The notes under the pieces are model-generated. The model was given only the letters and a program-made list of their open reading frames with translations, did not search any database and was not told the origin of the DNA. 64,000 bases of DNA from Heterodontus francisci (lineage: Eukaryota): positions 61,271,833 through 61,335,832 of the forward strand of contig NC_090378.1 in NCBI RefSeq assembly GCF_036365525.1, given 5' to 3'. Shown here piece by piece: positions 5,888 through 45,831 of the stretch. The translations under genes were made by a program, and so were the position numbers. Within the stretch, counting starts at the first letter, position 1; each line of letters opens with the position of its first letter.

Positions 5888-6259
5888 AGACATTCACGGA
5901 GAAGACTCGAAGGGCGGAGTTCCAGACCGTTAAGTATAAAAAACTGACCTCGGGGATTGGCGGCCTACATTCACGGAGAAGACTCGGAGGGCGGAGTTCC
6001 AGACCGGTAAATATAAAAAACTTACCTCTGGTAAAAAAAACTAAAAAGTGACATCACAGGAAAGCTGTGACCTGATTGGCTGGTAGGGAATTTGTACTGA
6101 ATTTGAAAATAAAACATTGGTAAAAATTGATTAAAACCCTAATTAACTAATTGATAAGTAGAGTAACTTAACCAGAGGGAGGAGATTACTGTATTTAGTT
6201 AGCATTTAATATTTATAGTAGAAATCTAGCACTAGGGACCATATAGTTAATTATAACAA

Positions 6260-7550: not shown

Positions 7551-7621
7551 GTAAGGATTTAATAAGTATTTATTTATTTTATATAAATTAACTAATTAGT
7601 GCTAGAAATGACAGTTAGAGG

Positions 7622-8530
7622 GTGAAGTGCTTCACCTGTGAGATGTGGGAAGTCCGTGACGCTTCCAGCGTTCCGGACGACTACATCTGCAGGAAGTGTA
7701 ACCAGTTGCAGCTCCTCACAGACCGCATGGATCGGTTGGAGCGGCAACTGGATGCACTTAGGAGCATGCAAGTGCCAGAAAGTGTCATAGACAGGAGTTT
7801 TAGAGAAGTGGTTACACCCAAGGTGCAGGCAGATAGATGGGTGACCGCTAGAAGGGGCAGGCAGTCAGTGCAGGAATCCCCTGTGGCTATCCCCCTCTCT
7901 AACAAGTATACCGTTTTGGATACTGTTGCGGGGGATGGCCTATCAGGGGAAAACAGCAGCAGCCAGAGCAGTGGCACCACGGCTGGCACTGTTGTTCAGC
8001 AGGGAGGGACAAAACGCAGAAGAGCAATAGTTATAGGGGACTCTATAGTCAGGGGCACAGATAGGCGCTTCTGTGGACGTGAAAGAGACTCCAGGATGAT
8101 ATGTTGCCTCCCTGGTGCCAAGGTCAAGGATGTCTCTGAACGGACAGGGGGCATTCTGAAAGGGGAGGGTGAACAGCCAGAGGTTGTGGTACACATCGGT
8201 ACCAACGATATAGGCAGGAAGAGTGATGAGGTCCTGCAGGGGGAGTTTAGGGAGTTAGGTAGAAAGCTAAAAAACAGGACCTCGAGGGTTGTAATCTTGG
8301 GATTACTCCCTGTGCTACGTGCCAGTGAGGCTAGAAATAGAAAGATAGTGCAGCTAAACACGTGGCTGAACAGCTGGTGTAGAAGGGAGGGTTTCAGATA
8401 TCTGGACCATTGGGATCTCTTCAGGGACAGATGGGACCTGTACAAGAAGGATGGGTTGCATCTAAACTGGAGGGGCACAAATATCCTGGCTGCGAGGATT
8501 GCTAGCGTCACTCGGGAGGGTTTAAACTAG
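7622..8530 (+). CDS. CR1 ORF1p: N-terminal CxxC..CxxC zinc finger, coiled coil, SGNH/GDSL esterase domain (likely ATG at 7608 is 1 nt out of frame in this copy)
   Basis: Motifs CFTCEMWE...CRKC, IVIGDSIVRG, VHIGTNDIG and DGLHLN; ends REGLN*. Confidence 0.88.
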   Translation: MKCFTCEMWEVRDASSVPDDYICRKCNQLQLLTDRMDRLERQLDALRSMQVPESVIDRSFREVVTPKVQADRWVTARRGRQSVQESPVAIPLSNKYTVLDTVAGDGLSGENSSSQSSGTTAGTVVQQGGTKRRRAIVIGDSIVRGTDRRFCGRERDSRMICCLPGAKVKDVSERTGGILKGEGEQPEVVVHIGTNDIGRKSDEVLQGEFRELGRKLKNRTSRVVILGLLPVLRASEARNRKIVQLNTWLNSWCRREGFRYLDHWDLFRDRWDLYKKDGLHLNWRGTNILAARIASVTREGLN

Positions 8531-11377
8531 TGTGGCAGGGGGGTGGGAACCAGAGCAGTAGGACAGCAAGTGAAATAAATGAAGGGGAACTAGTAAATAA
8601 GGCCAGTAAGACTAAGAGGAAGAGCAGGCAGGGAGATGTTGTGGAGAACAGCGGGACTGGTGGTCTGAAGTGCATTTGTTTCAATGCAAGAAGTATAACA
8701 GGTAAGGCAGATGAACTTAGAGCTTGGATTAGTACTTGGAACTATGATGTTGTTGCTATTACAGAGACTTGGTTGAGGGAAGGACAGGATTGGCAGCTAA
8801 ATGTTCCAGGATTTAGAAGCTTCAGGCGGGATAGAGGGGGATGTAAAAGGGGTGGGGGAGTTGCATTACTGGTTAAGGAGAATATCACAGCTGTACTGCG
8901 GGAGGACACCTCGGAGGGGTCATGCAGCGAGGCAATATGGGTGGAGCTCAGGAATAGGAAGGGTGCAGTCACGATGTTGGGAGTTTACTACAGGCCTCCC
9001 AACAGCCAGCGGGAGGTAGAGGAGCAGATATGTAGACAGATTTTGGAAAGATGTAAAGGTAACAGGGTTGCAGTGGTGGGTGATTTTAACTTCCCCTATA
9101 TTGACTGGGACTCACTTAGTGCTAGGGGCTTGGATGGGACAGAATTTGTAAGGAGCATCCAGGAGGGCTTCTTGAAACAATACGTAGATAGTCCAACTAG
9201 GGATGGGGCTGTACTGGACCTGGTATTGGGGAATGAGCCCAGCCAGGTGGTCGAAGTTTCAGTCGGGTAGCATTTCGGGAACAGTGACCATAATTCCATA
9301 AGTTTTAAGGTACTTGTGGATAAGGATGAGTAGTCCTCGGGTGAAGGTGCTAAATTGGGGGAAGGCTAATTATAACAATATTAGGCAGGAGCTGAAGAAT
9401 TTAGATTGGGGGCGGCTATTTGAGGGTAAATCAACATCTGACATGTGGGAGTCTTTCAAACGTCAGTTGATTAAAATCCAGGACCAGCATGTTCCTGTGA
9501 GGAAGAAGGGAACCTTGGATAACGAGGGATATTGTGAGCCTCGTCAAAAAGGAAAAGGAAGCATTCGTAATGGCTGGAAGGCTAGGAACAGACGAATCCC
9601 TTGAGGAATATAAAGACAGTAGGAAGGAACTTAAGCAAGGAGTCAGGAGGGCTAAAAGGGGTTATGAGAAGTCATTGGCAAACAGGATTAAGGAAAATCC
9701 CAAGGCTTTTTATTCATATATAAAGAGCAAGAGGGTAACCAGAGAAAGGGTTGGCCCACTCAAGGACAGAGAAGGGAATCTATGTTTGGAGCCAGAGGAA
9801 ATGGGCGAGGTACTAAATGAGTACTTTGCATCAGTATTCACCAAGGAGAAGGACTTGGTGGATGATGAGCCTAGGGAAGGGAGTGTAGATAGTCTCAGTC
9901 ATCTCATTATTAAAAAGGAGGAGGTGTTGGGTGTCTTGCAAAGCATTAAGGTAGATAAGTCCCCAGGGCCTGATGGGATCTACCCCAGAATACTGAGGGA
10001 GGCAAGGGAAGAAATTGCTGGGGCCTTGACAGAAATCTTTGCATCCTCATTGGCTACAGGTGAGGTCCCAGAGGACTGGAGAATAGCGAATGTTGTTCCT
10101 TTGTTTAAGAAGGGTAGCAAGGATAATCCAGGAAATTATAGGCCGGTGAGCCTTACGTCAGTGGTAGGGAAATTATTAGAGAGGATTCTTCGGGACAGGA
10201 TTTACTCCCATTTGGAAACAAATGGACTTATTAGCGAGAGGCAGCATGGTTTTGTGAAGGGGAGGTCGTGTCTCACTAACTTGATTGAGTTTTTTGAGGA
10301 AGTGACAAAGATGATTGATGAAGGAAGGGCAGTGGATGTTATCTATATGGACTTCAGTAAAGCCTTTGACAAGGTCCCTCATGGCAGACTGATACAAAAG
10401 GTGAAGTCACATGGGATCAGAGGGGAGCTGGCAAGATGGATACAGAACTGGCTCAGTCATAGAAGACAGAGGATAGCAGTGGAAGGGTGCTTTTCTGAAT
10501 GGAGGGATGTGACTCGTGGTGTTCCGCAGGGATCAGTGCTGGGACCTTCGCTGTTTGTAGTATATATAAATGATTTGGAGGAAAATGTAGCTGGTCTGAT
10601 TAGTAAGTTTGCGGACGACACAAAGGTTGGTGCAGTTGCGGACATTGATGAGGATTGTCAGAGGATACAGCAGGATATAGATCGGTTGGAGACTTGGGCA
10701 GAGAAATGGCAGATGGAGTTTAATTCCGACAAATGTGAGGTAATGTATTTTGGAAGGTCTAATGCAGGTGGGAAGTATACAGTAAATGGCAGAACCCTTA
10801 GGAGTATTGACAGGCAGAGAGATCTGGGCGGACAGGTCTTCAGGTCACTGAAAGTGGCAACGCAGGTGGATAAGGTAGTCAAGAAGGCATACGGCATGCT
10901 TGCCTTCATCGGTTGGGGCATAGAGTATAAAAATAGGCAAGTCATGCTGCAGCTGTACAGAACTTTAGTTAGGCCACACTTAGAATATTGCGTGCAATTC
11001 TGGTCGCCACACTACCAGAAGGACGTGCAGGCTTTGGAGAGGGTACGGAAGAGGTTTACCAGGATGTTGCCTGGTCTGGAGGGCACTGGCTATGAGGAGA
11101 GGTTGGATAAACTCGGATTGTTTTCACTGGAACGACGGAGGTGGAGGGGTGACATGATTTCGAGGTTTACAAAGTTCTTAGCGGCATGGACAGAGTGGAT
11201 AGTCAGAAGCTTTTTCCCAACGTGGAAGAGTCAGTTACTCGGGGCCATAGGTTTAAGGTGCGAGGGGCAAAGTTTAGAAGGGATGTGCGAGGCAAGTTCT
11301 TTACACAGAGGGTGGTGAGTGCCTGGAACTTTTTTGCTGGGGGAGGTGGTGGAAGCAGGTACCATAGAGACGTTTAA
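8521..11377 (+). pseudogene. CR1 ORF2 (APE endonuclease + reverse transcriptase), disrupted by a stop at 9268-9270 and frameshifts
   Basis: APE motifs FNARSI, AITETWL and VGDFN; RT motifs YRPVSLTS, DFSKAFD, GVPQGSVLGP and KFADDTK. Confidence 0.92.
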
Positions 11378-15575: not shown

Positions 15576-16667
15576 AGGCTACATAGCACAACTGCACACT
15601 AGACTTAGCGACTGAGCCTTTAAAGGCACATCATTTGCATCTTTAAAAAAAAATCCATAGATTCTGCAACAACATATTCCTGATGTGTACAACTCCACGT
15701 AACAAGAAATCGAACTTTCATTCATGGTCAGCTTTCTCAAGCTTATAATTATGGTCCCTAGTTCTTTGCTCCTGGTTCCACACAAAGAATTCCTTAGCTT
15801 TCAGCACAACAAATCCCTTCATACTTTAAAAAACATTGCATCATATCCTTCAGTATGGTACGACAGTTCAAAGCTGCCAATTTGTAGGTTTTTTTGTCAT
15901 TTAATTTAGTAGCTCCATACAACCAAATATGGAGAGCTTACTGCATGATACACTGTTGTAGGTCATTTTTATCAATACTGGGAAAAATTAACCACCAGTT
16001 ACTCCCAAAGCAAGCAAACTGTAAAACTCCAAAAATCAGTTAGGAAATATACACATCAACAGGTTTAGATGCATGCTCCACAGTTTGTAGAAGTTTTCTC
16101 CTGGCATTGGTTGAGTGTTGTTTTGTTGTTTTGTTTTCTTAACACAAAGACCTAACAGACTCCAAGCAACAGTAGCTAAGCTGCAGATTTTCACATCACC
16201 TGACTGACTACTTACACCAGATTAGTGGATGGCAAATACAAAGGTTTGGCTCACAGGAGAAAAAAGTGACTTTTTGATGGTTTAATGCTCAAGATCTGAT
16301 GAAATTGCTCAAATATTTATTGTGCAGGCCAAACTGAACACGTTTGCCAAAGTTTTTGATGTCATTATTGTGTCGGAATAAAGCAACTAACCTTGTTGCT
16401 ATGGTGTGTGGCAGTTAACGATTCATTCAGGGATTAGGACTCATTTTACAAGTTGAAATCTTGCTGCGCTGCCCTAGCCTCTGTGGACTCTATTTTAAGG
16501 CTAAGTTACATCAGCCTTAATGATGATTGACCTTCAGCCATGGAAAGGAGTGTATATTTAATGAAGTGAAGTGACTTTTATTGTTTCGAGATTTGAAAAT
16601 TACCAGAAAAAGGTTTCTGCTGACAATCAACTTATTTCTTAATCAGTACGCATGTCAATGTGACACG

Positions 16668-18899
16668 ATGCCCATAAATGGTACCGGTATTTTTACAAAT
16701 CCATATGCAATTGAGGTTCTACAAAGCAAGAAAAAGGAACTGGTAGCAGGAATTATCAACACTGATCGTCTTCTGGACTGGTTGGTTGAGAATCGTATAA
16801 TTTCACCAGATAAGAGAATCGCTGTGTCGAACTACAAGACACGGGAGGAAAAGAACTCGAGAGTTCTGGATATCTTGGTATCTTGTGGTGAGAGAGCCTG
16901 CAGACTGTTCTTTTATCCTTGCCTCAAGCATGTGGAACCAGCTCTGTACAATTACATCAGGAGTTATGTTAGTAATGTGTCCAGCACCTTTGGGGATGCC
17001 AGGAGACAGCTAGTGGGATACCTTTTAGAAAGAGATAAGGATGAAATCCCCAGGAATAACCCCAAAACGGCAGAGGAATTCAAAAAGAAGCCACATCAGA
17101 TGCCAAAAACAGCTAGTAGACCTCAACCTGTCCAGGTTGAACTTATTGAACTGTACCATGCTGCAGCATTGGGCGATCTTTCGAGTCTTGATAGAGCTTT
17201 GGGAGACAACAACATAAATGGCACAAATGCTTCTAATGAAACCCTGTTGCACATTGCTGCTGCCCATGGGCATGTTACAATTATTGAATATTTATTAAAT
17301 AAAGGAGCAAAGATAGAAGTGAGGGATAACAAAGGTCAATCACCTCTCCATCGGGCTGCAGAGGAAGGGCACACAGGTGCAGCCAAAATGCTTCTCCAAG
17401 CTGGAGCACATATCTATGCTTTGGATACAGAATCCCGAAGTCCATTGCACTTAGCTGCCCAGAACAATAATTTCTCCATCATGAAGCTGATGTTGAAAGA
17501 AGAAGCCAGAAATGATAAAAGGAAGAAATCTTTTTTGCACATGGCTGCACTCAGAGATGAAAGTAAACTAGCACAAATCATTCTCCAATATGGAGCTCGG
17601 GTTGACTCTAAGGATGAGAAGAACAGAACCCCATTGTTTCATGCTACTTCCCACGGACATCTCAATACTGTGAAGGTACTGCTGGAAACTGGAGCCAAGG
17701 TCGATGTTGATCTAATTCATACAGCATTTAATAGTAATAATCAATTCCTGATTAGGCTGATCTTGGAGCATGGCAGTAAAATTAGCTCTTCTGTCCTGGT
17801 CAGTGCACTCTTTAAAGCAGTTCAGAAAAATCTAGACAGAACTGTGGGCATTATAATTGAACAGGGCATTGACGCCAACACCAGAAATGAAATGCAATAC
17901 ACCCCTTTACTGTTAGCAGCAGAACTTGGCCATGCCGAAACTGTCGAAATCCTTATAAATAAAGGCGCACGTTTAGATGAAAGGACACCTAATATGAACA
18001 GTGCATTACACCTCACGGTCCAGACTGGTTCTGTTTCTGTTGCAAAACTGCTGATTGACCAGGGGATGGATGCAAACATTATTGGCTCTGGTGACCAAAC
18101 ACCCTTGCACGTTGCATCCTTTCATAACCAACCACCAATGATAGAGACTTTGATAGGAGGAGGTTCAAAGGTCAATGCAGTCACTAAGGAAGCAGTTACA
18201 CCCTTACATATCGCTTCACAAAAGGGTAACAAAGATACAGCAGAATGTCTCATCCAGAACAAAGCGGATGTGAATGCCAAAGACAGATACATGAGAACAC
18301 CCTTGCACATGGCTGCTGTAGTTGGAGATGCCTCCATTGCAGAGCTACTTCTGTCAAACCAGGCTGATCCTAATGCAGTAAATAAAGAGAAGAAGACCCC
18401 ACTCCATTTGGCTGCTAATGAGGGTCATTTGGATTTTGTATCTTTGATGTTAACCAGAAGGGCCAAGTTTGCCGTAAAAGATATGGATGGGAATACTCCA
18501 ATGCACTATGCAGCCAGCAATAGCCATAGCATTGTTGTCAAAGCTCTTTTATTGGCTGGAAAAAATAAAAACATAGATGATAAGAATGTTTGGCGGAAAA
18601 CACCATTACATCTAGCAGCAGAGCATAGTCATGAGGGCCTGGTAGAGTTGCTGTTGATCAGTGGAGCTGCCATTAATGCTTTAGACAATACCAAAGACAC
18701 ACCTCTTCATTGTGCTTGCAAATCGGGCAACTTTAACACTGCCCAAAAACTAATCAACTGGTCTCAAGGTGAAAAACCCAAGTTTCACTCAACAAATAGC
18801 TTAAAAAAGACCCCTCTTCAAGTTGCAGAAACTGGAGATACAGATAGCCACCATCAAATAGCAGCATTATTGAAAAAAAAAATGATGTTAACGAGATAA
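16668..18899 (+). CDS. caiap: CARD- and ankyrin-repeat-containing inflammasome adaptor protein (single coding exon, 743 aa)
   Basis: Uninterrupted ORF with an N-terminal CARD-like region (FTNPYAIEVLQSKKKELVAGI..LLDWLVENRII..RVLDILVSCGERACRLF) and about 15-16 ankyrin repeats (TPLHxAA...G...LL..GA.VN). First ATG at 16668 follows a splice acceptor (CTGAC...TTATTTCTTAATCAG, 16646). The architecture matches Caiap described in zebrafish. Confidence 0.88.
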   Translation: MPINGTGIFTNPYAIEVLQSKKKELVAGIINTDRLLDWLVENRIISPDKRIAVSNYKTREEKNSRVLDILVSCGERACRLFFYPCLKHVEPALYNYIRSYVSNVSSTFGDARRQLVGYLLERDKDEIPRNNPKTAEEFKKKPHQMPKTASRPQPVQVELIELYHAAALGDLSSLDRALGDNNINGTNASNETLLHIAAAHGHVTIIEYLLNKGAKIEVRDNKGQSPLHRAAEEGHTGAAKMLLQAGAHIYALDTESRSPLHLAAQNNNFSIMKLMLKEEARNDKRKKSFLHMAALRDESKLAQIILQYGARVDSKDEKNRTPLFHATSHGHLNTVKVLLETGAKVDVDLIHTAFNSNNQFLIRLILEHGSKISSSVLVSALFKAVQKNLDRTVGIIIEQGIDANTRNEMQYTPLLLAAELGHAETVEILINKGARLDERTPNMNSALHLTVQTGSVSVAKLLIDQGMDANIIGSGDQTPLHVASFHNQPPMIETLIGGGSKVNAVTKEAVTPLHIASQKGNKDTAECLIQNKADVNAKDRYMRTPLHMAAVVGDASIAELLLSNQADPNAVNKEKKTPLHLAANEGHLDFVSLMLTRRAKFAVKDMDGNTPMHYAASNSHSIVVKALLLAGKNKNIDDKNVWRKTPLHLAAEHSHEGLVELLLISGAAINALDNTKDTPLHCACKSGNFNTAQKLINWSQGEKPKFHSTNSLKKTPLQVAETGDTDSHHQIAALLKKKMMLTR

Positions 18900-23354: not shown

Positions 23355-24873
23355 TCTTTTTTTTTCTTTTGGGCCTCCTTATCTCGAGAGACAATGGATA
23401 CGCGCCTGGAGGTGGTCAGTGGTTTGTGAAGCAGCGCTGGAGTGGCTATAAAGGCCAATTCTAGAGTGACAGGCTCTTCCACAGGTGCTGCAGAGAAATT
23501 TGTTTGTCGGGGCTGTTGCACAGTTGGCTCTCCCCTTGCGCCTCTGTCTTTTTTCCTGCCAACTACTAAGTCTCTTCGACTTGCCACAATTTAGCCCTGT
23601 CTTTATGGCTGCCCACCAGCTCTGGCGAACGCTGGCAACTGACTCCCACGGCTTGTGATCAATGTCACACGATTTCATGTCGAGTTTGCAGACGTCTTTA
23701 AAGTGGAGACGTGGACGGCCGGTGGGTCTGATACCAGTGGCGAGCTTTTGTGTCTTTGGGGATCTTGCCAACTTCCTTGCGGCTCACATGGCCAAGCCAT
23801 CTCAAGCGCCGCTGACTCAGTAGTGTGTACAAGCTGGGGGTGTTGGCCGCCTCGAGGACTTCTGTGTTGGAGTTACGGTCCTGCCACCTGATGCCAAGTA
23901 ATCTCCGGAGGCAGCGAAGATGGAATGAATTGAGACGTCGCGCTTGGCTGGCATACGTTGTCCAGGCCTCGCTGCCATACAGCAAGGTACTGAGGACACA
24001 GGCCTGATACACTCAGACTTTTGTGTTCCGTGTCAGTGCGCCATTTTCCCACACCCTCTTGGCCAGTCTGGACATAGCAGTGGAAGCCTTACCCATGCGC
24101 TTGTTGATTTCTGCATCTAGAGACAGGTTACTGGTGATAGTTGAGCCTAGGTAGGTGAACTCTTGAACCACTTCCAGAGCGTGGTCGCCAGTATTGATGG
24201 ATGGAGCATTTCTGACGTCCTGCCCCATGATGTTCGTTTTCTTGAGGCTGATGGTTAGGCCAAATTCATTGCAGGCAGCCGCAAACCTGTCGATGAGACT
24301 CTGCAGGCACTCTTCAGTGTGAGATGTTAAAGCAGCATCGTCAGCAAAGAGGAGTTCCCTGATGAGGACTTTCCGTACTTTGGACTTCGCTCTTAGACGG
24401 GCAAGGTTGAACAACCTGCCCCCTGATCTTGTTTGGAGGACTTGTCACGTGAGACTCTTGAGGACTTGAACGCATGTGAAAGCAGCAGGGAGAAGAAAAT
24501 CCCAAAAAGTGTGGGTGCGAGAACACAGCCCTGTTTCACGCCACTCAGGATAGGAAAGGGCTCTGATGAGGAGCCACCATGTTGAATTGTGCCTTTCATA
24601 TTGTCATGGAATGAGGTGATGATACTTAGTAGCTTTGGTGGACATCCGATCTTTTCTAGTAGTCTGAAGAGACCACGTCTGCTGACGAGGTCAAAGGCTT
24701 TGGTGAGATCAATGAAAGCAATGTAGAGGGGCATCTGTTGTTCACGGCATTTCTCCTGATCTGACGAAGGGAGAACAGCATGTCAACGGTCGATCTCTCT
24801 GCACGAAAGCTACACTGTCCCTCAGGGTAGACGCGCTCGGCCAGCTTCTGGAGTCTGTTCAGCGCGACTCGAG
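23355..24873 (-). mobile_element. RTE-clade LINE, 5'-truncated, frameshifted
   Basis: ORF pieces PLYIAFIDLTKAFDLVSR, ELLFADDAAL and CSTCGRACHSRIGLYSH; A-rich tail at ~23355-23370. Confidence 0.92.
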
Positions 24874-27110: not shown

Positions 27111-27152
27111 GTCTTTCTGGAGTCACGGGTGACGACACAGAACCAAACTCCA

Positions 27153-27283
27153 GGATCGCGGGAATGTGGAAGACTCGGAGACAGAGAAGGATCGCGGGAA
27201 TGTGGAGGACTCGGAGACAGAGAAGGATCGCGGGAATGTGGAGGACTCGGAGACAGAGAAGGATCGCGGGAATGTGGAGGACT
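27153..27283 (+). repeat. 36-bp tandem repeat (~3.6 copies) in the presumed 5' UTR
   Basis: Unit GGATCGCGGGAATGTGGAGGACTCGGAGACAGAGAA starting at 27153, 27189, 27225 and 27261. Confidence 0.92.
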
Positions 27284-27314
27284 GCTTTGGTGTGATGGTA
27301 GAGGCGGTGAACTG

Positions 27315-27381
27315 ATGGCTCGCAATGAAGAGAAACAGTTGGGGAAGCTAAACCGATTGTGGTTGCAGAGGGAGAAAGAAG
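27315..27381 (+). CDS. ISY1-like uncharacterised protein, coding exon 1 (MARNEEKQLGKLNRLWLQREKE-)
   Basis: ATG at 27315 and donor G|GTGAAG (phase 1); joins in frame to exons 2-5. Confidence 0.82.
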
Positions 27382-27589
27382 GTGAAGGAATCTGCTGCTG
27401 TTCATTTGTATTACTATCTGTTACGGAATAAATAAATGGAAGAAGGAGGCTTTTGAAATGTGGCTTGGTGACAAGGAGTTGGCAGTGCCTGAGAGCGGCT
27501 CCCCGGGAGGATTGCACAGTTCAGGCACTCTCAGCAGCATCTTTGGGTTTGATTTGCCCTATTGTGCTGGGATTCAGTTCCGTAGGACT

Positions 27590-30500
27590 CTCCTCTGTCT
27601 CCCCGCCCCCCCATTCCCCCACTCCTGTCTTCTCTCCCCCCCACCCCCACTCCTGTCTTTTCTCTCCCCCCCCCCACCCCCACTCCTGTCTTCTCTCCCC
27701 CCCCACCCCCACTCCTGTCTTCTCTCCCCCCCCCACCCCCACTCCTGTCTTCTCTCCCCCCCCCCACCCCCACTCCTGTCTTCTCTCCCCCCCCCACCCC
27801 CACTCCTGTCTTCTCTCCCCCCCCCACCCCCACTCCTGTCTTCTCTCCCCCCCCCCACCCCCACTCCTGTCTTCTCTCCCCCCCCCACCCCCACTCCTGT
27901 CTTCTCTCCCCCCCCCACCCCCACTCCTGTCTTCTCTCCCCCTCCCACCCCCACTCCTGTCTTCTCTCCCCCCCCCCACCCCCACTCCTGTCTTCTCTCC
28001 CCCCCCACCCCCACTCCTGTCTTCTCTCCCCCCCCACCCCCACTCCTGTCTTCTCTCCCCCCCACCCCCACTCCTGTCTTCTCTCCCCCCCCACCCCCAC
28101 TCCTGTCTTCTCTCCCCCCCACCCCCACTCCTGTCTTCTCTCCCCCCCACCCCCACTCCTGTCTTCTCTCCCCCCCCACCCCCACTCCTGTCTTCTCTCC
28201 CCCCCCACCCCCACTCCTGTCTTCTCTCCCCCCCCCAACCCCACTCCTGTCTTCTCTCCCCCCCCCCACCCCCACTCCTGTCTTCTCTCCCCCCCCCCCA
28301 CCCCCACTCCTGTCTTCTCTCCCCCCCCCCCCACCCCCACTCCTGTCTTCTCTCCCCCCCCCCCCACCCCCACTCCTGTCTTCTCTCCCCCCCCCACCCC
28401 CACTCCTGTCTTCTCTCCCCCCCCACCCCCACTCCTGTCTTCTCTCCCCCCCCCACCCCCACTCCTGTCTTCTCTCCCCCCCCACCCCCACTCCTGTCTT
28501 CTCTCCCCCCCCACCCCCACTCCTGTCTTCTCTCCCCCCCCACCCCCACTCCTGTCTTCTCTCCCCCCCCACCCCCACCCCCACTCCTGTCTTCTCTCCC
28601 CCCCCACCCCCACCCCCACTCCTGTCTTCTCTCCCCCCCCACCCCCACTCCTGTCTTCTCTCCCCCCCCCACCCCCACTCCTGTCTTCTCTCCCTCCCCC
28701 ACCCCCACTCCTGTCTTCTCTCCCCCCCCCCCCACCCCCACTCCTGTCTTCTCTCCCCCCCCACCCCCACTCCTGTCTTCTCTCCCCCCCCACCCCCACT
28801 CCTGTCTTCTCTCCCCCCCCACCCCCACTCCTGTCTTCTCTCCCCCCCCACCCCCACTCCTGTCTTCTCTCCCCCCCCACCCCCACTCCTGTCTTCTCTC
28901 CCCCCCCACCCCCACTCCTGTCTTCTCTCCCCCCCCCCCCCCACCCCCACTCCTGTCTTCTCTCCCCCCCCCACCCCCACTCCTGTCTTCTCTCCCCCCC
29001 CCACCCCCACTCCTGTCTTCTCTCCCCCCCCCACCCCCACTCCTGTCTTCTCTCCCCCCCCCACCCCCACTCCTGTCTTCTCTCCCCCCCCCACCCCCAC
29101 TCCTGTCTTCTCTCCCCCCCCCACCCCCACTCCTGTCTTCTCTCCCCCCCCCACCCCCACTCCTGTCTTCTCTCCCCCCCCCACCCCCACTCCTGTCTTC
29201 TCTCCCCCCCCCACCCCCACTCCTGTCTTCTCTCCCCCCCCCACCCCCACTCCTGTCTTCTCTCCCCCCCCCACCCCCACTCCTGTCTTCTCTCCCCCCC
29301 CCACCCCCACTCCTGTCTTCTCTCCCCCCCCCACCCCCACTCCTGTCTTCTCTCCCCCCCCCCACCCCCACTCCTGTCTTCTCTCCCCCCCCCACCCCCA
29401 CTCCTGTCTTCTCTCCCCCCCCCACCCCCACTCCTGTCTTCTCTCCCCCCCCCCACCCCCACTCCTGTCTTCTCTCCCCCCCCACCCCCACTCCTGTCTT
29501 CTCTCCCCCCCCCACCCCCACTGCTGTCTTCTCTCCCCCCCCCCACCCCCACTCCTGTCTTCTCTCCCCCCCCCACCCCCACTCCTGTCTTCTCTCCCCC
29601 CCCCACCCCCACTCCTGTCTTCTCTCCCCCCCCCACCCCCACTCCTGTCTTCTCTCCCCCCCCACCCCCACTCCTGTCTTCTCTCCCCCCCCCCCCACCC
29701 CCACTCCTGTCTTCTCTCCCACCCCCACCCCCACTCCTGTCTTCTCCCCCCACCCCCACCCCTGTCTTCTCTCCCCCCACCCCCACCCCTGTCTTCTCTC
29801 CCCCCACCCCCACCCCTGTCTTCTCTCCCCCCACCCCCACCCCTGTCTTCTCTCCCCCCACCCCCACCCCTGTCTTCTCTCCCCCCACCCCCACCCCTGT
29901 CTTCTCTCCCCCCACCCCCACTCCTGTCTTCTCTCCCCCCACCCCCACTCCTGTCTTCTCTCCCCCCACCCCCACTCCTGTCTTCTCTCCCCCCACCCCC
30001 ACTCCTGTCTTCTCTCCCCCCACCCCCACTCCTGTCTTCTCTCCCCCCACCCCCACTCCTGTCTTCTCTCCCCCCACCCCCACTCCTGTCTTCTCTCCCC
30101 CCACCCCCACTCCTGTCTTCTCTCCCCCCACCCCCACTCCTGTCTTCTCTCCCCCCACCCCCACTCCTGTCTTCTCTCCCCCCACCCCCACTCCTGTCTT
30201 CTCTCCCCCCACCCCCACTCCTGTCTTCTCTCCCCCCACCCCCACTCCTGTCTTCTCTCCCCCCACCCCCACTCCTGTCTTCTCTCCCCCCACCCCCACT
30301 CCTGTCTTCTCTCCCCCCACCCCCACTCCTGTCTTCTCTCCCCCCACCCCCACTCCTGTCTTCTCTCCCCCCACCCCCACTCCTGTCTTCTCTCCCCCCA
30401 CCCCCACTCCTGTCTTCTCTCCCCCCACCCCCACTCCTGTCTTCTCTCCCCCCACCCCCACTCCTGTCTTCTCTCCCCCCACCCCCACTCCTGTCTTCTC

Positions 30501-31137
30501 TCCCCCCACCCCCACTCCTGTCTTCTCTCCCCCCACCCCCACTCCTGTCTTCTCTCCCCCCACCCCCACTCCTGTCTTCTCTCCCCCCCCACCCCCACTC
30601 CTGTCTTCTCTCCCCCCCCACCCCCACTCCTGTCTTCTCTCCCCCCCCACCCCCACTCCTGTCTTCTCTCCCCCCCCACCCCCACTCCTGTCTTCTCTCC
30701 CCCCACCCCCACTCCTGTCTTCTCTCCCCCCCCACCCCCACTCCTGTCTTCTCTCCCCCCCCACCCCCACTCCTGTCTCCTCTCCCCCCACCCCCACCCC
30801 CACCCCCACTCCTGTCTTCTCTTCCTCTCCCCCCACCCCCACCCCCACTCCTGTCTTCTCTTCCTCTCCCCCCACCCCCACCCCCACTCCTGTCTTCTCT
30901 TCCTCTCCCCCCACCCCCACCCCCACTCCTGTCTTCTCTTCCTCTCCCCCCACCCCCACCCCCACTCCTGTCTTCTCTTCCTCTCCCCCCACCCCCACCC
31001 CCACTCCTGTCTTCTCTTCCTCTCCCCCCACCCCCACCCCCACTCCTGTCTTCTCTTCCTCTCCCCCCCCCCCCACCCCCACTCCTGTCTTCTCTTCCCC
31101 CCCCCCACCCCCACCCCCACTCCTGTCTTCTCTTTCC
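27590..31137. repeat. ~3.5-kb C-rich minisatellite (27-39-bp units) in intron 1 of the ISY1-like gene
   Basis: Unit CCCCACTCCTGTCTTCTCT(C)nA with variable C-run and homogeneous sub-blocks of 30, 27 and 39 bp. Confidence 0.97.
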
Positions 31138-32154
31138 CGTAGTGAAGTGTTGGTAATATTACCCTTAACTGCATAATTTAGTTTGATTTTAGGTTGACTG
31201 TAGTTTAGGAGTTCAGTGCCAGCTCTGCAATTTGACTGCATTCAAATGCTAAGGCTCAACATTTGCTTCATCAAATATTAGCATAAGCAATTGCCCCCTT
31301 CTTCCAGCATGTACTTATGGGATACTCGCAGCCTGCATGGAACTGCCATTTTTTTGTGATTAACACTGCATGTCATAATCTCTCTTGGTTTCCCTACAAA
31401 CATTGAGTAGCAAGGGTGTGAGGAGTTGTGTTTATGATTTCAGGCTCCCAGTTTTGTAAGTAACAAGAATGCAATGGTCCTGATCTGCATAGCCGCCATG
31501 CTGTGCGAGTTTTAAAAAAAAAATTCCAACCAAATTTTTGATCCCTACCATCTGATCCTGACCTATTTATAAAAAAAAGTTTGTTTTGTGCAAATGTAAT
31601 AGAATAAAAATTCAAAGAAATGTGTGTCAAAGTATGACACAGCACCTAGTTTTAGATATTTTATTTACTGATCAAATGTTATGTTTATTTTGAATGTTTG
31701 GGAATATGAAATATCAGAGTTGAAGTAATATACATAAACCACAAGGGTAAAGCTCTTGAAGGGTTTATGGCTGTTATTTGAGCTTTGAAGTTAAATATCT
31801 GTTTTTTGCTTTTTTTCAATCTTTTATTTAAGAACATTACCTTTAATAAAGTGAAAAGGAAAAGGCTTTTCAAAAAAAACTTTCAATCTGGACATCAGTG
31901 TACAGATCAACCGCAATGAAGGCTCCAATGATGAGTCACTGCTGGCAAAATAACTGACAACATAATTCTGACAAACATAATTATAAAGTCGAAATGTATT
32001 TTTTTGGTTCAAATGGTGGCTGTGAACCACTCTAACTTCACGTAACATTATCTATACTCCTTTTTCCAACACCAATGACTGTTGTCAGCTCCAAATGCTT
32101 GGAACTACTGAGTATTACTGAAATTGGAGGGTATGGTGCAATTTTAGTGGTTGC

Positions 32155-32580
32155 TGTGCTCACCCCTGTGTTCACTGACCTACATTGGCTCCTCTTTCGG
32201 CAACAACTTGATTTTTAAAATTCTCATCTTTGTTTTCCAATTCCCCTATGTTCTTCTCCTCCCTATCTCTGTAATCCCCTCTAGCCCTCAGATCTCTGTG
32301 CTTCTCTAATTCTGGCCTGTTGCGCATCCTAGATTTTCTTTGCTTCACCATTGGCAGCCATGCTTTCAGCTATCTAGGCTCTGTTCTGGAATTCCCTCGC
32401 TAAATCACTCTACCCCTCTCTACTCTTTTAAAACGCTTCATAGAACTGATCTGATCAAGCTTTTGGTCACTTGTCCTAATATCTCTGTGGCGCAATGCCA
32501 AATATTGTTTGATAACGGTCCTGTGAAGCACCTTGGGTTGTTTTATTACATTAAAGGCACGATATACATGCAAGTTGTTG
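32155..32580 (+). mobile_element. L2-clade LINE 3' end
   Basis: CTCACCCCTGTGTTCACTGACCTACATTGGCTCC ... GTGAAGCACCTTGGG ... ATGCAAGTTGTTGTT tail. Confidence 0.75.
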
Positions 32581-32629
32581 TTAGACAGTAGTATATTAAA
32601 GGATATAATCACTTGTTTTTGTTCAATAG

Positions 32630-32670
32630 AGGGTCGCCTGAGAGACATACGTCAAAACCGACCCAGACTA
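32630..32670 (+). CDS. ISY1-like protein, coding exon 2 (-EGRLRDIRQNRPRL)
   Basis: Acceptor TTGTTTTTGTTCAATAG and donor GTGAGT; 41 nt, phase 1 to 0. Confidence 0.82.
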
Positions 32671-33939
32671 GTGAGTAAGCATACCATTTTTTTGGGCTTC
32701 TTAAGCTGCAGTTTTATAATTGACCAGTAACACATTTGACTGGGAAAGTGAACCAAGATTGCTGTGGTCCAGTTCATGTAACAACTTCTTGCAAGTGGTG
32801 AGTGTTGCCATCTCCCACTTAACAATAAGATTCAAATACTGGTGGCTTTTTCCATTTTGGCACTTGGGTTTCTAAATATTAACCTTGGTTCAGTTTTTCT
32901 TCATATCTGATATCAGCAACTTCGTGCTGGTAGGAGCTTTCTGCTACTGTGCCATACCTTTCACAATGTTTTTAAATGTGATCTTTCAATAATGTGGAAG
33001 GCAGACTCCTGTTGGTAGTATATTACTGTACCACAATGCAGCAAAAAACAATAATAGTCAACCTGCCCATTCTGAGTTTTCTTCTACATCTGGCAGTGCT
33101 ACAATAACAAATTTATTAAGAGCATTTAGAATGCTATGCAAAAGCTTAGATGTAGGGAGGTGTTTGAGATTGCATACAAACTTCTTTGTTTACCATACCC
33201 AAAACTAAGAATTAACATACATATTTGCAATTTCTGTACCAATGGTCATTTGTTCGAATTTCCTCCACTCCATTTGTGTTCAGAGGCTGAGATGCATGTT
33301 TTTTTTCCTGTGCTCCTACTTCAAATAAATACACTGTAAAGAATAGGAAGAAATTTGCATTTATATGGCACTTTTCACAACCTCAGGATGTTCCAAAGCG
33401 CTTCACAGCCAATAAATTATTTTTGAAGTGTAGTCACTGTTGCAATGGTTCTTTTTCTGAACTTGTACAGTAGGTTTTGAAATAAACACTTGGCATGTCA
33501 AAAAGTACTGCAAAAAATCTTCAGAAATGGCTTATACTGGTATTGCAGAATTGACTGTAGAAGCTTCCTGTTTGCAACACAGTTCTGCTGCAGATTTCAC
33601 CTGTACCTGCCATAGCAACAGCCAATCAAAAATTCTTTTTGATGATTCGATTAATGGTGTGTATAATGTTGCTGTCAGTGTAAAGTCGCAGTGTGCTTAT
33701 TAATATTTATAATTTAAATGTTATAGGAAAGTGTCATTGATTTAATCTGAGTGCTTTAAATTGTCTGAATTCATGCTTTTTAATTCACTGAGAGGTACAT
33801 TTTCAATACTAATGCAATATAATGGACTGTTTTAGTACTTTGCCCTAAAACCAACTAAGTTAATGCATGGAAAAATGGGTATTACAGGTGATCACTTTCC
33901 ATTTAGTGGTAAATTGAACTTTTGGTATCTTATTTGTAG

Positions 33940-34014
33940 TCTTCCTTGAATTCAGCTGTTGAAGTGAAAAAATGGATTCCAAGTATCAAGACTGAGATGG
34001 AGTATTATCTTCAG
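33940..34014 (+). CDS. ISY1-like protein, coding exon 3 (SSLNSAVEVKKWIPSIKTEMEYYLQ)
   Basis: Acceptor TCTTATTTGTAG and donor CAG|GTGAAT; 75 nt, phase 0 to 0. Confidence 0.85.
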
Positions 34015-34986
34015 GTGAATAATTCTGTTTATGAAAGGGACAATGTTTCACTGCTGGGGCAAACAAAATCCCCTCTTCAACAGTGTCAACTCATCATTTG
34101 ATGGTGAAAGTTTTGAAAGTATTAAACACAGTTCATGAATGTTTGTTTCCATTTTGCCTTGGAATAGAATTAAACTATATTTGTGCAGTTAACCTTCTTT
34201 CGAGGAGCTGAATCAAGATGGCCAAAACCTATTTTACATTGGACTTTGGGTTTTTAAGATTCCACAGATGACATTTTTACTTTGGAGTTGTATCTAGGGA
34301 GTTTCTTTATAATGGATTCTGCTCTAGGAATACAGTGTATACAGGCAGATTTGTGGTGTAGACCACTTCTTGCTACAAATGGGTTGATAGTGCTGAAACT
34401 CATTTCTAGTTAGATATAGTTCTTGGAGCTAATGGGATCAAGGGATACGGGGAGAAAGCGGGAACAGGTTACTGAGTTTGGCTGATCAGCCATGTTCGTA
34501 TTGAATGGCGGAGCAGGCTCGAAGGGCCGAATGGCCTACTCCTATTTTTCTGTGTTTCTAGGAACCTTGCAGACAGCATCAAGATGAGATATTCATCTCA
34601 TCACTCTGCACTGGATTCAAAACAAAAGTCCCAGAGATGAAAACGCTGTCTCCCAAATTGTAATACCCACCGTTTCAGTGCAACCTTTAATAGCTCAAAT
34701 GAGTCCAATTTAAAGAAAGATATGTGAAAGCAATGTTGGTCACTAAACATTTGGTTAAGTAGAAAATAATTTTTGTTTGCTAAGATTCTTTGTTAACCAA
34801 ATTACTTGGGCCTTTTGCTTTCATTAAAAATATATTTTGTAGGGTTTGTTATATATGTAATATAGGGTGTACTAACTTGTTTTATGTACATGTCTGGGTG
34901 TGTGGTTTAACAGGAAATTAAAGTGTTAATAAATTAAGTCATATTTTGGTGATGTAATAAAAGGAAATGTTTTCACTGCTTTACAG

Positions 34987-35185
34987 CAATCACAACTATC
35001 CCATTACTCAGAAAGGAAGATAAAGGAATTCCAGGATCACATTGAAGAACTTCAGAAGGAGTATCAGCATTATTTGTGGAAGCTGCGTCGGTTAGACCCT
35101 TCCCACAAGGAACACCCTTGGAAACCCCGTGCTTACACCCGGAAAAGACCATCTAACTCTGCAATGCCGACCATCAGCCAACTGG
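34987..35185 (+). CDS. ISY1-like protein, coding exon 4 (QSQLSHYSERKIKEFQDHIEELQKEYQHYLWKLRRLDPSHKEHPWKPRAYTRKRP...)
   Basis: Acceptor TTTCACTGCTTTACAG, open frame, donor G|GTATTA; 199 nt, phase 0 to 1. Confidence 0.83.
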
Positions 35186-35902
35186 GTATTAAAAATTACA
35201 TCTGGTGGTAATTTGATGTAGATAAGCAGCTGATGGGTCTCCAGTGCACTGCAGCACGTAGTACAATAATGCAAATGGTATCTTAATAGGGCATTCATCA
35301 CATTTAAAATCCTCATCCTTTACTTCATGGTTTTGGCCCACCCTATCTCTGCAACTTCATCCACCCTTTAGTCTTCCACTCTGGCCTGTCATGAATCTTT
35401 CTTTCCGTCCTTCCCCTGAAGCTTTCCTCCCGACTCTCAAATCATTGGTGTAGCCGTCAGTAACTTTTTGTCTGGAACTCCCTAAATCCTTTTGCTTCCT
35501 ACCTTAATTCATGCTTTTAAAACCTATTTAAGCCTCATCTGTTCAACTAATTTTTCATTAACACTTCTTCAATTCATCTCCTTGCATTGTCACGGTTTGT
35601 TGTCCATTCCTTCCAGTATCAGTTTCTGTTTATCTTTCCTCTCCTGCTGTATAATGCCCTGGGATTTTTTTAATACTAAATGTACTATTTGTTGATTAAT
35701 CTGTCATTGGTCAGAGAAATTTGGAAGAGTTGATATTAACAGAAGAACCATAACTTGAAACACATTGGCCAAATTTATTTTTCCTCGAATGAACCAAGTG
35801 GGAGCTTGAATTCAATCATGAAAGAGCCACTTGATCAATGGAAATACATTTTCTGGCAATCGAAGGGTCCCTACCTAATCCACTGTAACTTGATGCAAAC
35901 CT

Positions 35903-36633
35903 TGTAAGACTCTTAAATAGGGGGTCTCAGTTTCCCTCTAAGGTCCTGACCCCATATTGAGTATCAATGGCACAAAACAAACTTTGGTTACAATTTCCAC
36001 TTTATGTGGAACACTTTTATTAACTCACAAAGCAATAGTATATACTTAGAACAGCAGTTGCTTAGTAGACCTGCGTGCTGAAGCTCGTTCCCGGGTGGTC
36101 AGATCCGCTGAATGAATTCTTCCGCACGACTTCCTGCGACTGACCAAGTCACAAAGTCCTTGTGAGCTGTGGCTTTATACCCCTTTCTGATCCTGGTCCC
36201 TCAACATATAAGGTAATGACTTGGGTCATCTGATTGGGTTTCAGTGCCTTATCAATTCCACCATGGCGATGCAGGACCACCTGCATGTGGTCAAATCCTG
36301 CTCTCAACAGGGGTCTGAGGTGCATACCAGCAATGGATGTGATATCTGCATCTTGATAAGGCAAGGAGGAAATCATTCACATATATTCCAAGAGGTCATT
36401 GTCCATGAGAGTGGTGGTATGTGTGGTGTGGGGGGGTGTCCTTGTTCAGTTACACTGTCTTTAATTTTAAAGTCCAATATGAACCCCAGTGATGATGCCT
36501 TCAGTCAGAATTCTTCTGCCTTTGTCACAATGTCCTCCACACGCCTTGTTATTTCCACCAGGTGAGCCCCCACACGCTGATCCACACAACTGGTTACATG
36601 CAAGAAATGCAAGACCTATTCAAATCCCTTACA
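35903..36633 (-). mobile_element. Probable solo LTR
   Basis: TG...CA ends with imperfect inverted termini (TGTAAGACTCTTAAATAGG / CCTATTCAAATCCCTTACA) and 4-bp flanks ACCT/ATCT. TATA-like and AATAAA motifs lie on the minus strand. Confidence 0.6.
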
Positions 36634-37178
36634 ATCTCTAATTGTAGAAATTACTGCTATGCAGTACAGATCTGTGTGATGTAATTAACTGTTATGAGGC
36701 TGTCGGATCCTGTGCCAGTTTGTCTGTCAGTTTCCATTTAATGCATTTATTCAAAGCCACCTTTTAAAATGATTTTTAATATTGATTCATCTTACCTGTC
36801 CTATCTAATAATAGTCTCCACCACTGTTCCTTGGCCCTTTATTTAGATTTTGTCAATTTTTGAAAATGATCTTTGTGCACATTGTATAAATTCCAACTAA
36901 CTCACTGTATATCAAATGTCGTGGTATGCCTTGCTGTGAGGTGTTGGGAAAAGTAATTTTGACACACATGAACCAAATAATTCCCTTTAATGAAAAATTC
37001 TGAAAATAGATTATTAAATGACTATACAATGTAGTTTCCCCCTCCCCCACCCCGTATCTTCCTTTTTTTAAAGCTCTGTGCCAATTTTACCCTGTGAATT
37101 TTTCTATCCAGTAATTCAGATTAATAGCCAGATGCACTAGTGTTCTGTTTTATTAAATTAAGGTTTTGTTACTTACAG

Positions 37179-37639
37179 CTACATTGCAGAGTTTGAAACG
37201 ACTTTGCGTGCCTCAATCAAACAAAACTGAAGGAGAGACTTATGAGCATGACTCTGATGCGGAATCTGGTGAAGTAAGGGAAAGGAGCTGCCCAAACCCA
37301 CGAATACCAGATGGTGTCATCTATGACTGTTCAATAGTTAATCCAAATTTTCAGGACCAGCCCCTCACCTTTAATCCTGCTAGAGTTCCACCAAGATTTT
37401 CTATGCATCTAATTCCAAAAAATTCATCAGAAGACCCACACCTCATGACTAAAATTCTTATGTCTCATCTACCGAACTTAGAAGCTTCATCTTCCTGTCA
37501 AACTACAGCAGAATTGAACAAAAAGGAAAAAGAAATACATGCTTTGAAGATCAGGGAAGATTCCCAGGAGTCTGTTTTGCAGACTAAAAGCTCTGGTATC
37601 CTGGGATTATCTTGCTATTCTTCAGATGAAGATACATAG
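37179..37639 (+). CDS. ISY1-like protein, last coding exon (-ATLQSLKRLC...GILGLSCYSSDEDT*)
   Basis: Acceptor TTTTGTTACTTACAG; phase 1 matches exon 4; open to TAG at 37637-37639. Total CDS is 843 nt (280 aa). Confidence 0.78.
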
Positions 37640-37855
37640 ATGCCAAGTAGAAGCTGATTCATATTCATAGCTCTAAATGTTTATCATTTTGTCTTTTCAG
37701 CACTTATTTAATGTAAACTTTGAATATATATATAGCTATATAGCTTTGTGCTATTTGTATAGTATTGTTGAATTTCCGTTTCATCCTAAGTATGGTAATG
37801 AAATGTATCCCCTAATTCCAATTCCCATAGTTGGTATGAATTTAAATCATTCAGA

Positions 37856-37861
37856 AATAAA
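37856..37861 (+). other. Candidate polyadenylation signal of the ISY1-like gene
   Basis: AATAAA ~220 nt after the stop, followed by GT/T-rich sequence. Confidence 0.5.
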
Positions 37862-38074
37862 ATAATCTTTCAAATGCGTATTGCGTATCGTTTACTTTCA
37901 ACCATTAGTGTATAATGACTGGCAGGTCTACAGTTCTGTTGATTGAGCAGTCAGTCTGACCAGCATGCTGACCTATATTTTTGGAGCCTTTTATTTGGAA
38001 AACAAATAAATATATAGGTACAATACCAATTAAAATAAAATTCCATATGCAGACGTCAAACCCATGCATTAAAG

Positions 38075-39590: not shown

Positions 39591-39709
39591 GGTAAAGGTC
39601 AGAAAGCAAGCAAGGGAATGAAATATGGCAGTAAGTTCAAAGCATAATTAGTAGATAATACACCTCTATTGCACTTCAATATATTTCAGAATACATAGCT
39701 GACACAAGA

Positions 39710-40648
39710 AATGACCTTCCTTCAATCATAAGGTCAGAAGTGGAGATGTTCGCTGATGATTGCACAATGTTCAGCACCATTCGCAACTCCTCAAATACTG
39801 AAGCAGTCCGTGCAGAAATGCAGCAAGACCTGGACAATATCCAGGCTTGGGCTGATAAGTGGCAAGTAACATTTGTGCCACACAAGTGCCAGGCAATGAC
39901 CATCTCCAACAAGAGAGAATCTAACCATCTCCCCTTGACATTCAATGGCATTACTATCGGTGAATCCCCCACTATCAACATCCTAGGGGCTACCATTGAC
40001 CAGAAACTGAACTGGAGTAGCCATATAAATACCGTGGCTACAAGAGCAGGTCAGAGGCTAGGAATCCTGAGGCGAGTAACTCACCTTGTGACTCCCCAAA
40101 GCCTGTCTGCCATCTACAAGGCACAAGTCAGGAGTGTGATGGAATACTGTCCACTTGCCTGGATGGGTGCAGCTCCAACAACACTCAAGAAGCTCGACAC
40201 CATCCAGGACAAAGCAGCCCGCTTGATTGGCACACCATCCACAAACATTCACTCCCTCCACCACTGACGCACAGTGGCAGCAGTGTGTACCATCTACAAG
40301 ATGCACTGCAGCAACGCACCAAGGCTCCTTAAACAGCACCTTCCAAACCCGCGATCTCTACCACTTCGAAGGACAAGAGCAGCAGATGCATGGGAACATC
40401 ACCAACTACAAGTTCCCATCCAAGTCACACACCATCCTGACTTGGAACTATATCGCCATTCCTTCACTGTCGCTGGGTCAAAATCCTGGAACTCCCTTCC
40501 TAACAGCACTGTGGGTATACCTACCTCACATGGATTGTAGCGATTCAAGAAGGCAGCTCACCACCACCTTCTCAAGGGCAATTAGGGATGGGCAATAAAT
40601 GCTGGCATAGCCAGTGATGCCCACATCCCATGAATGAATAAAAAAAAA
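39710..40648 (+). mobile_element. 5'-truncated LINE (CR1/L2 superfamily) RT C-terminus and 3' UTR
   Basis: MFADDCTMF, QQDLDNIQAWADKWQVTF and YKAQVRSVMEY; tail CCCATGAATGAATAAAAAAAAA. Confidence 0.85.
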
Positions 40649-44282: not shown

Positions 44283-45831
44283 TCCTCCACGCAAGATCAG
44301 GTGGCAGGTTGTTCAACCTTGCCCGTCTAAGAGCAAAGACCAAAGTACGGAAAGTCCTCATCAGGGAACTCCTCTTTGCTGACGATGCCATCATACATTC
44401 CTCTGATGTTTCCGGTGTCAGATACAGGAGAAATGCCTCGAACAACAGATGCCCCTCTACGTTGCTTTCATTGATCTCACCAAAGCCTTTGACCTCGTCA
44501 GCAGACATGGTCTCTTCAGACTACTAGAAAAGATCGGATGTCCACCAAAGCTACTAAGTATCATTACCTCATTCCATGACAATATGAAAGGCACAATTCA
44601 GCATAGCGGCACCTCATCAGAGCCCTTTCCTATCCTGAGTGGCGTGAAACAGGGCTGTGTTCTCGCACCTACACTGTTTGGGATTTTCTTCTCCCTGCTG
44701 CTCTCACATGCGTTCAAGTCTTCAGAAGAAGGAATTTTGCTCCACACAAGATCAGGTGGCAGGTTGTTCAACCTTGCCTGTCTAAGAGCGAAGACCAAAG
44801 TACGGAAAGTCCTCATCAGGGAACTCCTCTTTGCTGACGATGCTGCTTTAACATCTCACACTGAAGAGTGTCTGCAGAGTCTCATCGACAGGTTTGCGGC
44901 TGCCTGCAATGAATTTGGCCTAACCATCAGCCTCAAGAAAACGAACATCATGGGACAGGACGTCAGTAATGCTCCATCCATCAATATCGGCGACCACGCT
45001 CTGGAAGTGGTTCAGGAGTTCACCTACCTAGGCTCAACTATCACCAGTAACCTGTCTCTCGATGCAGAAATCAACAAGCGCATGGGAAAGGCTTCCACTG
45101 CTATGTCCAGACTGGCCAAGAGAGTGTGGGAAAATGGCGCACTGACACGGAACACAAAAGTCCAAGTGTATCAAGCCTGTGTCCTCAGTACCTTGCTCTA
45201 CGGCAGTGAGGCCTGGACAACGTATGTCAGCCAAGGGCGGCGTCTCAATTCATTCCATCTTCGCTACCTCCGGAGAATCCTTGGTATCAGGTGGCAGGAC
45301 CGTATCTCCAACACAGAAGTCCTCGAGGTGGCCAACATCCCCAGCATATACACACTACTGAGTCAGCGGCGCTTGAGCCAGCTTGGCCATGTGAGCCGCA
45401 TGGAAGATGGCAGGATCCCCAAGGACACATTGTACAGCGAGCTCGTCACTGGTATCAGACCCTTCGGCCATCCATGTCTCCGCTTTAAAGACGTCTGCAA
45501 ACGCAACCTGAAGTCCTGTGACATTGATCACAAGTCGTGGGAGTCAGTTGCCAGCGATCGCCAGAGCTGGCGGGCAGCCATAAAGGCGGGGCTAAAGTGT
45601 GGCGAGTCGAAGAGACTTAGCAGTTGGCAGGAAAAAAGACAGAAGTGCAAGGGGAGAGCCAACTGTGTAATAGCCCCGACAACCAATTTTATCTGTAGCA
45701 CCTGTGGAAGAGTCTGTCACTCTAGAATTGGCCTTTATAGCCACTCCAGGCGCTGCTTCACAATCCACTGACCACCTCCAGGCGCATACCCATTGTCTCT
45801 CGAGACAAGGAGGCCAAAGAAGAAAAAGAAG
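44283..45831 (+). mobile_element. RTE-clade LINE, 5'-truncated and 5'-rearranged, inserted in CR1
   Basis: Open 440-aa RT C-terminal ORF (44449-45771) ending CSTCGRVCHSRIGLYSHSRRC; TSD AACCTTTT at 44275-44282 and 45832-45839. Confidence 0.93.

Follow-up and report, generated by a model that had tools for sequence, protein, structure and literature searches.

A second ISY1-type gene in Heterodontus francisci: an ISY1 paralogue with a possible accessory role in the minor spliceosome

The closest described relative of the gene considered here is the splicing factor ISY1 (Isy1 or Ntc30; Pfam PF06246; PDB chains 7b9v_G, 5lj3_G, 5gmk_H, 6ff7_w and 9l5s_CV and entry 1x4t), to which its likeness lies in the N-terminal 98 residues. 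Yeast Isy1 clamps the branch helix with its N-terminal domain, the extreme N-terminus promoting branching, while a pair of helices at the C-terminus serves as its tether to Syf1 and Lea1, the latter a protein of the U2 small nuclear ribonucleoprotein (snRNP) (PMC8022279). Six proteins specific to the minor (U12-type) spliceosome are closely related to proteins of the major spliceosome, and the tables describing the spliceosome in the last common ancestor of eukaryotes (LECA) give no spliceosomal paralogue for ISY1 (PMC9887622). Here, we describe a gene of Heterodontus francisci located in a 64,000-nucleotide stretch of contig NC_090378.1 (RefSeq assembly GCF_036365525.1, positions 61,271,833 to 61,335,832, forward strand; referred to as the window), where five exons between positions 27315 and 37639 encode a protein of 280 residues. 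The initial annotation had proposed that this was an uncharacterised ISY1 paralogue that could act as an alternative or regulatory step-1 splicing factor. The species pattern of the gene points to the minor spliceosome more specifically than that proposal, and we consider it possible, with a confidence not far short of even, that the gene is an ancient ISY1 paralogue functioning as an accessory first-step, or branching, factor of the minor spliceosome.

The product of the gene matches RefSeq entry P0001 (si:dkey-86e18.1 isoform X2 of H. francisci), which equals residues 56 to 280 letter for letter and carries a precomputed Isy1 domain; the gene is therefore annotated already and merely uncharacterised. 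A search with exon 4 returned 31 proteins, many of them called si:dkey-86e18.1, whose sources were cartilaginous fish, coelacanth and amphibians, and the shark orthologue P0003 was 61-86% identical to cartilaginous-fish members. Best hits, full-length alignment and the single copy place the gene in the si:dkey-86e18.1 orthologous group, from which no sequence difference sets it apart and two shark annotations of which use the name 'ISY1 homolog'. Judged by sequence, the gene is thus within the Isy1 domain family and the si:dkey-86e18.1 group, and it is not an ISY1 orthologue. The description of the gene as uncharacterised stands, in that no paper on si:dkey-86e18.1 or on an ISY1 paralogue was found in the full-text literature, a coverage that most subscription papers fall outside. 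There was no mention of the gene in PMC10158995, nor was it named in the supplements of PMC8280824 (one of 13 files excepted) and PMC11039992, where nameless groups could hide it.

By profile comparison, residues 1 to 98 are an Isy1 domain, and the proposed homology to ISY1 was borne out. The Pfam Isy1 profile was matched by all 24 aligned vertebrate members, with P0003 scoring 42 bits (cut-off, 25) over profile positions 1-98 of 253, although the single exons of the window stayed below the cut-off individually. Among invertebrate and protist members, 12 of 14 matched, in each case over positions 1-99 only, and 11 were above the cut-off. A family profile recovered the spliceosome Isy1 chain 9l5s_CV from the PDB (E = 6.5e-4); a protist profile reached human ISY1 only at an E value of 0.022, ranked after a short unrelated match. 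In the predicted model, helices span residues 3-23, 42-63 and 70-97, the predicted local distance difference test score (pLDDT) is 83-94 across residues 31-100, and the tail is disordered. Isy1 chains ranked first in both structure comparisons, at modest scores: they took the top 7 ranks with Foldseek, none with an E value below 0.001, and the top 4 ranks in the VIA comparison (Z, 9.0-9.2; root mean square deviation, 1.0-2.6; 59-71 residues). Foldseek with a second model gave no match under an E value of 0.001. Rfam gave no match in the window, and the Atlas scores were all below 0.9 and serve as leads only.

The canonical ISY1 of this genome lies on another contig (G000:C19) with its GYKYFG region intact, which makes the gene a paralogue, as had been suggested, and rules out a mis-annotated true ISY1. 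The two proteins are identical at 29 of the first 100 residues, and a single-target search aligned the family profile end to end with residues 1-101 of this genome's ISY1 (38 bits). Of the spacing that the initial annotation had regarded as preserved, the MARN-x-EK start, the RP pair and W48 align, together with the two-helix hairpin and without large gaps, whereas the EEG match is not family-wide. Beyond the domain, the gene product differs from ISY1 in lacking the GYKYFG and DADYYG regions, in possessing tail motifs of its own, and in sharing no intron position. As the initial annotation had noted, the first of these motifs is absent: GYKYFG was found in 0 of the 282 collected proteins. The Isy1 match ends at profile position 98-99, short of the GYKYFG and DADYYG regions that mark a full-length ISY1, and no match was detectable to the family's last 155 positions. 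The Syf1- and Lea1-binding C-terminal helices likewise had no profile match, although a remnant too short to register is possible, and the terminal tail motif compared with the last helix of ISY1 scored no better than shuffled sequences (650 of 2000 reached the score). The gene product thus retains the clamp domain and no detectable tether. None of its 3 introns in the aligned domain coincides with any of the 6 that ISY1 has there, assuming that the first ISY1 intron follows the start codon. In a quick tree, 31 family rows were split from ISY1 by one very long branch, with the root unsure and a single ISY1 included. The distribution of the gene is patchy; ISY1, to our knowledge, is near-universal among eukaryotes.

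Out of 1.84 billion representatives searched, 264 were hits; the list covered 150 of them, and of 30 that were looked up, 20 named a species. Among the matches listed, the named carriers were molluscs, a sponge, a jellyfish, a spider, insects, a crustacean, amphioxus, six amoebozoans, Basidiobolus and Blastocystis; a further word-limited search added Physarum (via a transcript label) and Balamuthia, bringing the amoebozoans to 8 and the named non-animal carriers to 10. Vertebrate carriers comprise fish, including cartilaginous fish, coelacanth and teleosts, as well as amphibians. The vertebrate profile scored the protist sequences at 64-115 bits and ISY1 at 27. A survey of minor introns by Larue and Roy (PMC10639083) covers 5 of the 10 non-animal carriers, and all 5 are in its minor-intron-rich list: Protostelium aurantium (265 minor introns), Blastocystis (253, at the genus level), Basidiobolus (249), Pelomyxa (90) and Physarum, also rich. 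No carrier among the named hits came from Dikarya, alveolates, Discoba, ochrophytes, Dictyostelium or nematodes, all of which are reported to be without minor introns (PMC10639083 and PMC11347168). Since minor-intron richness holds for every one of the five non-animal carriers with data and no carrier was named from a lineage without such introns, the gene product may be an accessory factor of the minor spliceosome. Moreover, SYF1, PRPF19 and SPF27 are missing from the human minor activated (Bact) complex (PMC11039992), and a protein whose tether helices have no match would fit a spliceosome from which SYF1 is absent. U12 small nuclear RNA is present in this genome.

Several observations weigh against this reading. 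The remaining 5 of the 10 non-animal carriers are outside the minor-intron data, and the structural scores given above are within the range that chance helical hairpins reach and are not decisive alone. The gene itself has no U12-type intron, all four donors being of the major type, and the tandem U12-type splice-site feedback element was not found in it (no RTATCCTT or RTATCTTT in 27315-37639). Such an element or an own U12-type intron occurs in some minor-specific genes and is not obligatory. Of the best 120 hits (out of 299) with the vertebrate profile, a list filled by teleosts, 115 were named, with no amniote among them, and no land plant, oomycete, Rhizophagus or chytrid was present among the named hits; all of these lineages retain minor introns (PMC10639083), so the gene product cannot be a core minor component. 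These absences are weakly measured, as 114 of the 264 representative hits were unlisted. The same absences from amniotes and plants would be expected if, as in the proposal of the initial annotation, the protein instead worked in the first step of the major spliceosome as an alternative or regulatory factor, swapping with ISY1 by intron or tissue and tuning branch-site fidelity. That the N-terminal domain is the same and its start near-invariant agrees with this alternative, which we nevertheless regard as rather unlikely, given that the helices tethering Isy1 to Syf1 and the U2 snRNP are without a match and that the minor-intron richness of the five non-animal carriers is left unexplained.

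The species pattern could also arise without any role in splicing. Lineages that lose minor introns are generally fast-evolving, and the conservative-genome confounder is raised in the survey itself (PMC10639083). Conservative genomes could simply keep both the gene and minor introns, which is a further point against a minor-spliceosome role. The reduced biology of Blastocystis and Pelomyxa argues against that explanation. A repurposed protein acting outside splicing, in transcription, repair or another nuclear complex, would leave a pattern reflecting only the retention of an old gene; the two-helix hairpin is a common fold, and repeated loss shows that the gene is dispensable. Isy1, however, is the only significant sequence relative, and the residues in common with ISY1 include the active-site-facing N-terminus, so that we consider this explanation quite improbable.

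The family is old under any of these readings. Six of nine metagenome loci were modelled for intron positions, and two of them (L019 and L020) have shark introns 1 and 2 at the same position and phase. In four others (L022, L025, L026 and L027), intron 3 matches beside a one-residue indel and intron 2 is offset by 1 nucleotide (nt); their introns are about 30 nt long, and these loci gave the top or a near-top score with the Blastocystis protein, not decisively. The introns of the protist loci are GT-AG and without U12 donors. Among three related amoeba-like loci, a U12-donor-like ATATCCTT lies within intron 1 of L019 (at 142) and of L021 (at 733) and is altered in L020; it is probably there by chance. 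Since opisthokonts, amoebozoans and a stramenopile carry the gene, we infer an origin at or near LECA, the root of the tree being unsure. Loss in amniotes is likely, judging from the sequences named. A recent fish-specific duplicate is ruled out by carriers ranging from sponge to Blastocystis and by the introns common to the protist loci. Nor was the idea of a fish-level novelty supported, given carriers among animals, amoebozoans, one fungus and one stramenopile and an existing RefSeq entry for the gene. One member, P0129 of Oryzias melastigma, is predicted to have the domain fused to one of the TNF family, which probably reflects read-through in the gene model.

The gene and its features are arranged as follows (positions in the window).
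27182..27314, forward strand: 5' untranslated region, covered by transcript-type contigs; CpG-rich and overlapping a 36-nt tandem repeat.
27315..27381, forward strand: exon 1, coding part; residues 1-22, with the MARN-E-K start and first helix, corresponding to the branch-helix-clamping N-terminus of Isy1.
27382..32629, forward strand: intron 1; GT-AG, phase 1, mainly C-rich 30-nt minisatellite.
32630..32670, forward strand: exon 2; residues 23-36, with an RP-x-L motif at the end.
33940..34014, forward strand: exon 3; residues 37-61, which form the first of the two Isy1 hairpin helices.
34987..35185, forward strand: exon 4; residues 62-127, second hairpin helix.
35113-35136, forward strand: family-specific PW-x-x-R-x-Y segment inside exon 4.
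35140-35151, forward strand: basic RKRP patch in exon 4, a possible nuclear signal.
35186..37178, forward strand: intron 4; GT-AG.
37179..37639, forward strand: exon 5, coding part; residues 128-280, predicted to be disordered, with short conserved motifs.
37202..37213, forward strand: TP-(L/V/I)-L motif, degenerate here; residues 136-139.
37355..37372, forward strand: (D/N)-x-PL-x-F motif; residues 187-192.
37601..37633, forward strand: C-terminal hydrophobic-Tyr-acidic/Ser motif; residues 269-279.
37640..37878, forward strand: 3' untranslated region; AATAAA at 37856, with contigs from two studies stopping at 37877-37878.

In an exhaustive test of AG and GT (or GC) sites around the proposed boundaries, the 280-residue model was the only open one with all introns GT-AG, the sole other open model needing a GC donor; the initial gene model, with its five exons and canonical splice sites, was thereby recovered with the same start and end. 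Introns 1 to 4 are 5248, 1269, 972 and 1993 nt long. Runs only guessed to be RNA were used as contigs without depth, and one of their studies, P1, is possibly of the genome's own sample. All four joins were present in these transcript-type contigs: exact GT..AG skipping was seen at junctions 2-3, 3-4 and 4-5 in 4 of 4 runs (3 studies), and in 3 of the 4 runs the exon 1-2 join appeared as a loose contig end at 27381 continuing into exon 2 sequence, the fourth giving a mixed consensus. The gene is present in one copy in the H. francisci genome, so a processed copy is no explanation for the exon joins, and transcripts are the best reading of the joined forms. An annotation artefact or pseudogene is ruled out by the open frame, the exact junctions and the conserved orthologues.

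Contigs from both flanking exons entered intron 4 in 4 of 4 runs, whereas introns 2 and 3 were not so covered, and an alternative, frameshifting donor about 20 nt within intron 4 was used in 2 of the 4 runs (related organism B). Retention of intron 4 or use of this donor would truncate the protein to 135-151 residues with loss of the tail motifs, and both forms would leave only the domain, with no exon junction further downstream. Such possible retention, together with the alternative donor, is reminiscent of splicing regulators that control themselves, a resemblance that speaks for a regulatory factor of the major spliceosome. At the 5' end, the 36-nt tandem repeat (3.7 copies, 27152-27283) overlaps the 5' untranslated region, and every copy adds an out-of-frame upstream ATG, all of them sharing one frame whose stop precedes the main start. 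RefSeq isoform X2 starts at Met56, and the N-terminal clamp is missing from it. Within intron 1, a 3.5-kb C-rich minisatellite (27606-31134; a 30-nt unit of about 110 copies, followed by a 39-nt unit) keeps frames of about 1200 codons free of stops on either strand, none of which is a gene.

The C-terminal half had been described as unrelated to ISY1 and disordered; disorder is indeed predicted, and yet the half is not featureless, as three conserved motifs are present. In 70 full-length representatives, TP-x-L was counted in 38, (D/N)-x-PL-x-F in 46 and the terminal hydrophobic-Tyr-acidic motif in 48, against shuffled-sequence maxima of 4, 1 and 4, respectively, the patterns having been derived from the same sequences in which they were counted. 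All three are short and kept from amoebae to sharks, and they look like docking motifs. A disordered tail made up of a string of motifs is typical of adaptors, and one may ask whether the protein is a spliceosome decoy or a quality-control or disassembly factor that occupies the Isy1 site while its tail recruits a helicase, phosphatase or decay factor, with no part in branching. Identity to this genome's ISY1 at just 29 of the first 100 residues would agree with such a role, and, going by their titles, Isy1 chains are found in late or quality-control structures (9l5s and 8ro1). However, the branching-promoting extreme N-terminus is kept family-wide (members being partly selected on that start) and no partner was identified; we hold this explanation to be improbable.

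If the gene product does serve the minor spliceosome, it would act there as an accessory first-step branching clamp. Its own tail motifs would recruit it, because the minor Bact complex offers no partner to the tether of ISY1, namely its C-terminal helices on SYF1 and on the U2 snRNP protein Lea1/U2A'. The paralogue would be either dispensable or open to replacement by ISY1, and its loss in amniotes and plants would be explained in this way. By extension, and more tentatively, LECA may have had two Isy1 proteins, one per spliceosome, with this gene encoding the minor first-step clamp, recruited without SYF1 by tail motifs. A complex prediction for P0003 residues 1-115 with one CDC5L exon (54 residues, second Myb repeat) scored 0.00; as it covered this one part of CDC5L, which may or may not contact Isy1, the score counts neither for nor against such an interaction. 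Like TXNL4B, SNRNP35, ZRSR, RNPC3/RBM41, SCNM1 and the candidate WDR25, the gene would be an ancient spliceosomal paralogue kept outside animals in lineages with minor introns. RBM41 is likewise a minor factor that is patchily retained and dispensable in cells (PMC11039992). Unlike this gene, which was not found in amniotes or plants, those factors have human genes and mostly direct evidence.

Elsewhere on the contig, a peptidase M48 exon, which we take to be OMA1-like, lies 197 kb downstream of the gene (G000:C8:61506002-61506127), and a Xenopus family member is in a UniRef cluster named OMA1, hinting at a conserved neighbourhood. About 8 kb upstream of the gene, one long forward-strand frame (16575-18899) encodes an N-terminal CARD and many ankyrin repeats; it fits, by architecture only, Caiap, an inflammasome adaptor that vertebrates from cartilaginous fish up to marsupials retain and placentals lack (PMC5662874). 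Fragments of LINE-type (long interspersed nuclear element) retrotransposons, with esterase, endonuclease and reverse-transcriptase domains, are present at 6247-11318, 24013-24444, 39659-40267 and 44407-45771.

Little is known of the factors that act at the catalytic stage in the minor spliceosome, and two papers, from 2022 and 2024, give structures of its Bact and U11 complexes only. Searches for minor components began mainly from human genes, so that a factor lost in amniotes could be missed; a minor role for this gene, if true, would have been overlooked because humans, yeast and Arabidopsis lack it. Amniotes and plants must in that case branch minor introns using ISY1 or no Isy1 protein at all. 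The gene would then be a new minor-spliceosome component of LECA age and would provide an answer to how branching proceeds without SYF1. The minor link aside, it represents an unstudied second ISY1-type protein common to animals, amoebozoans, one fungus and one stramenopile.

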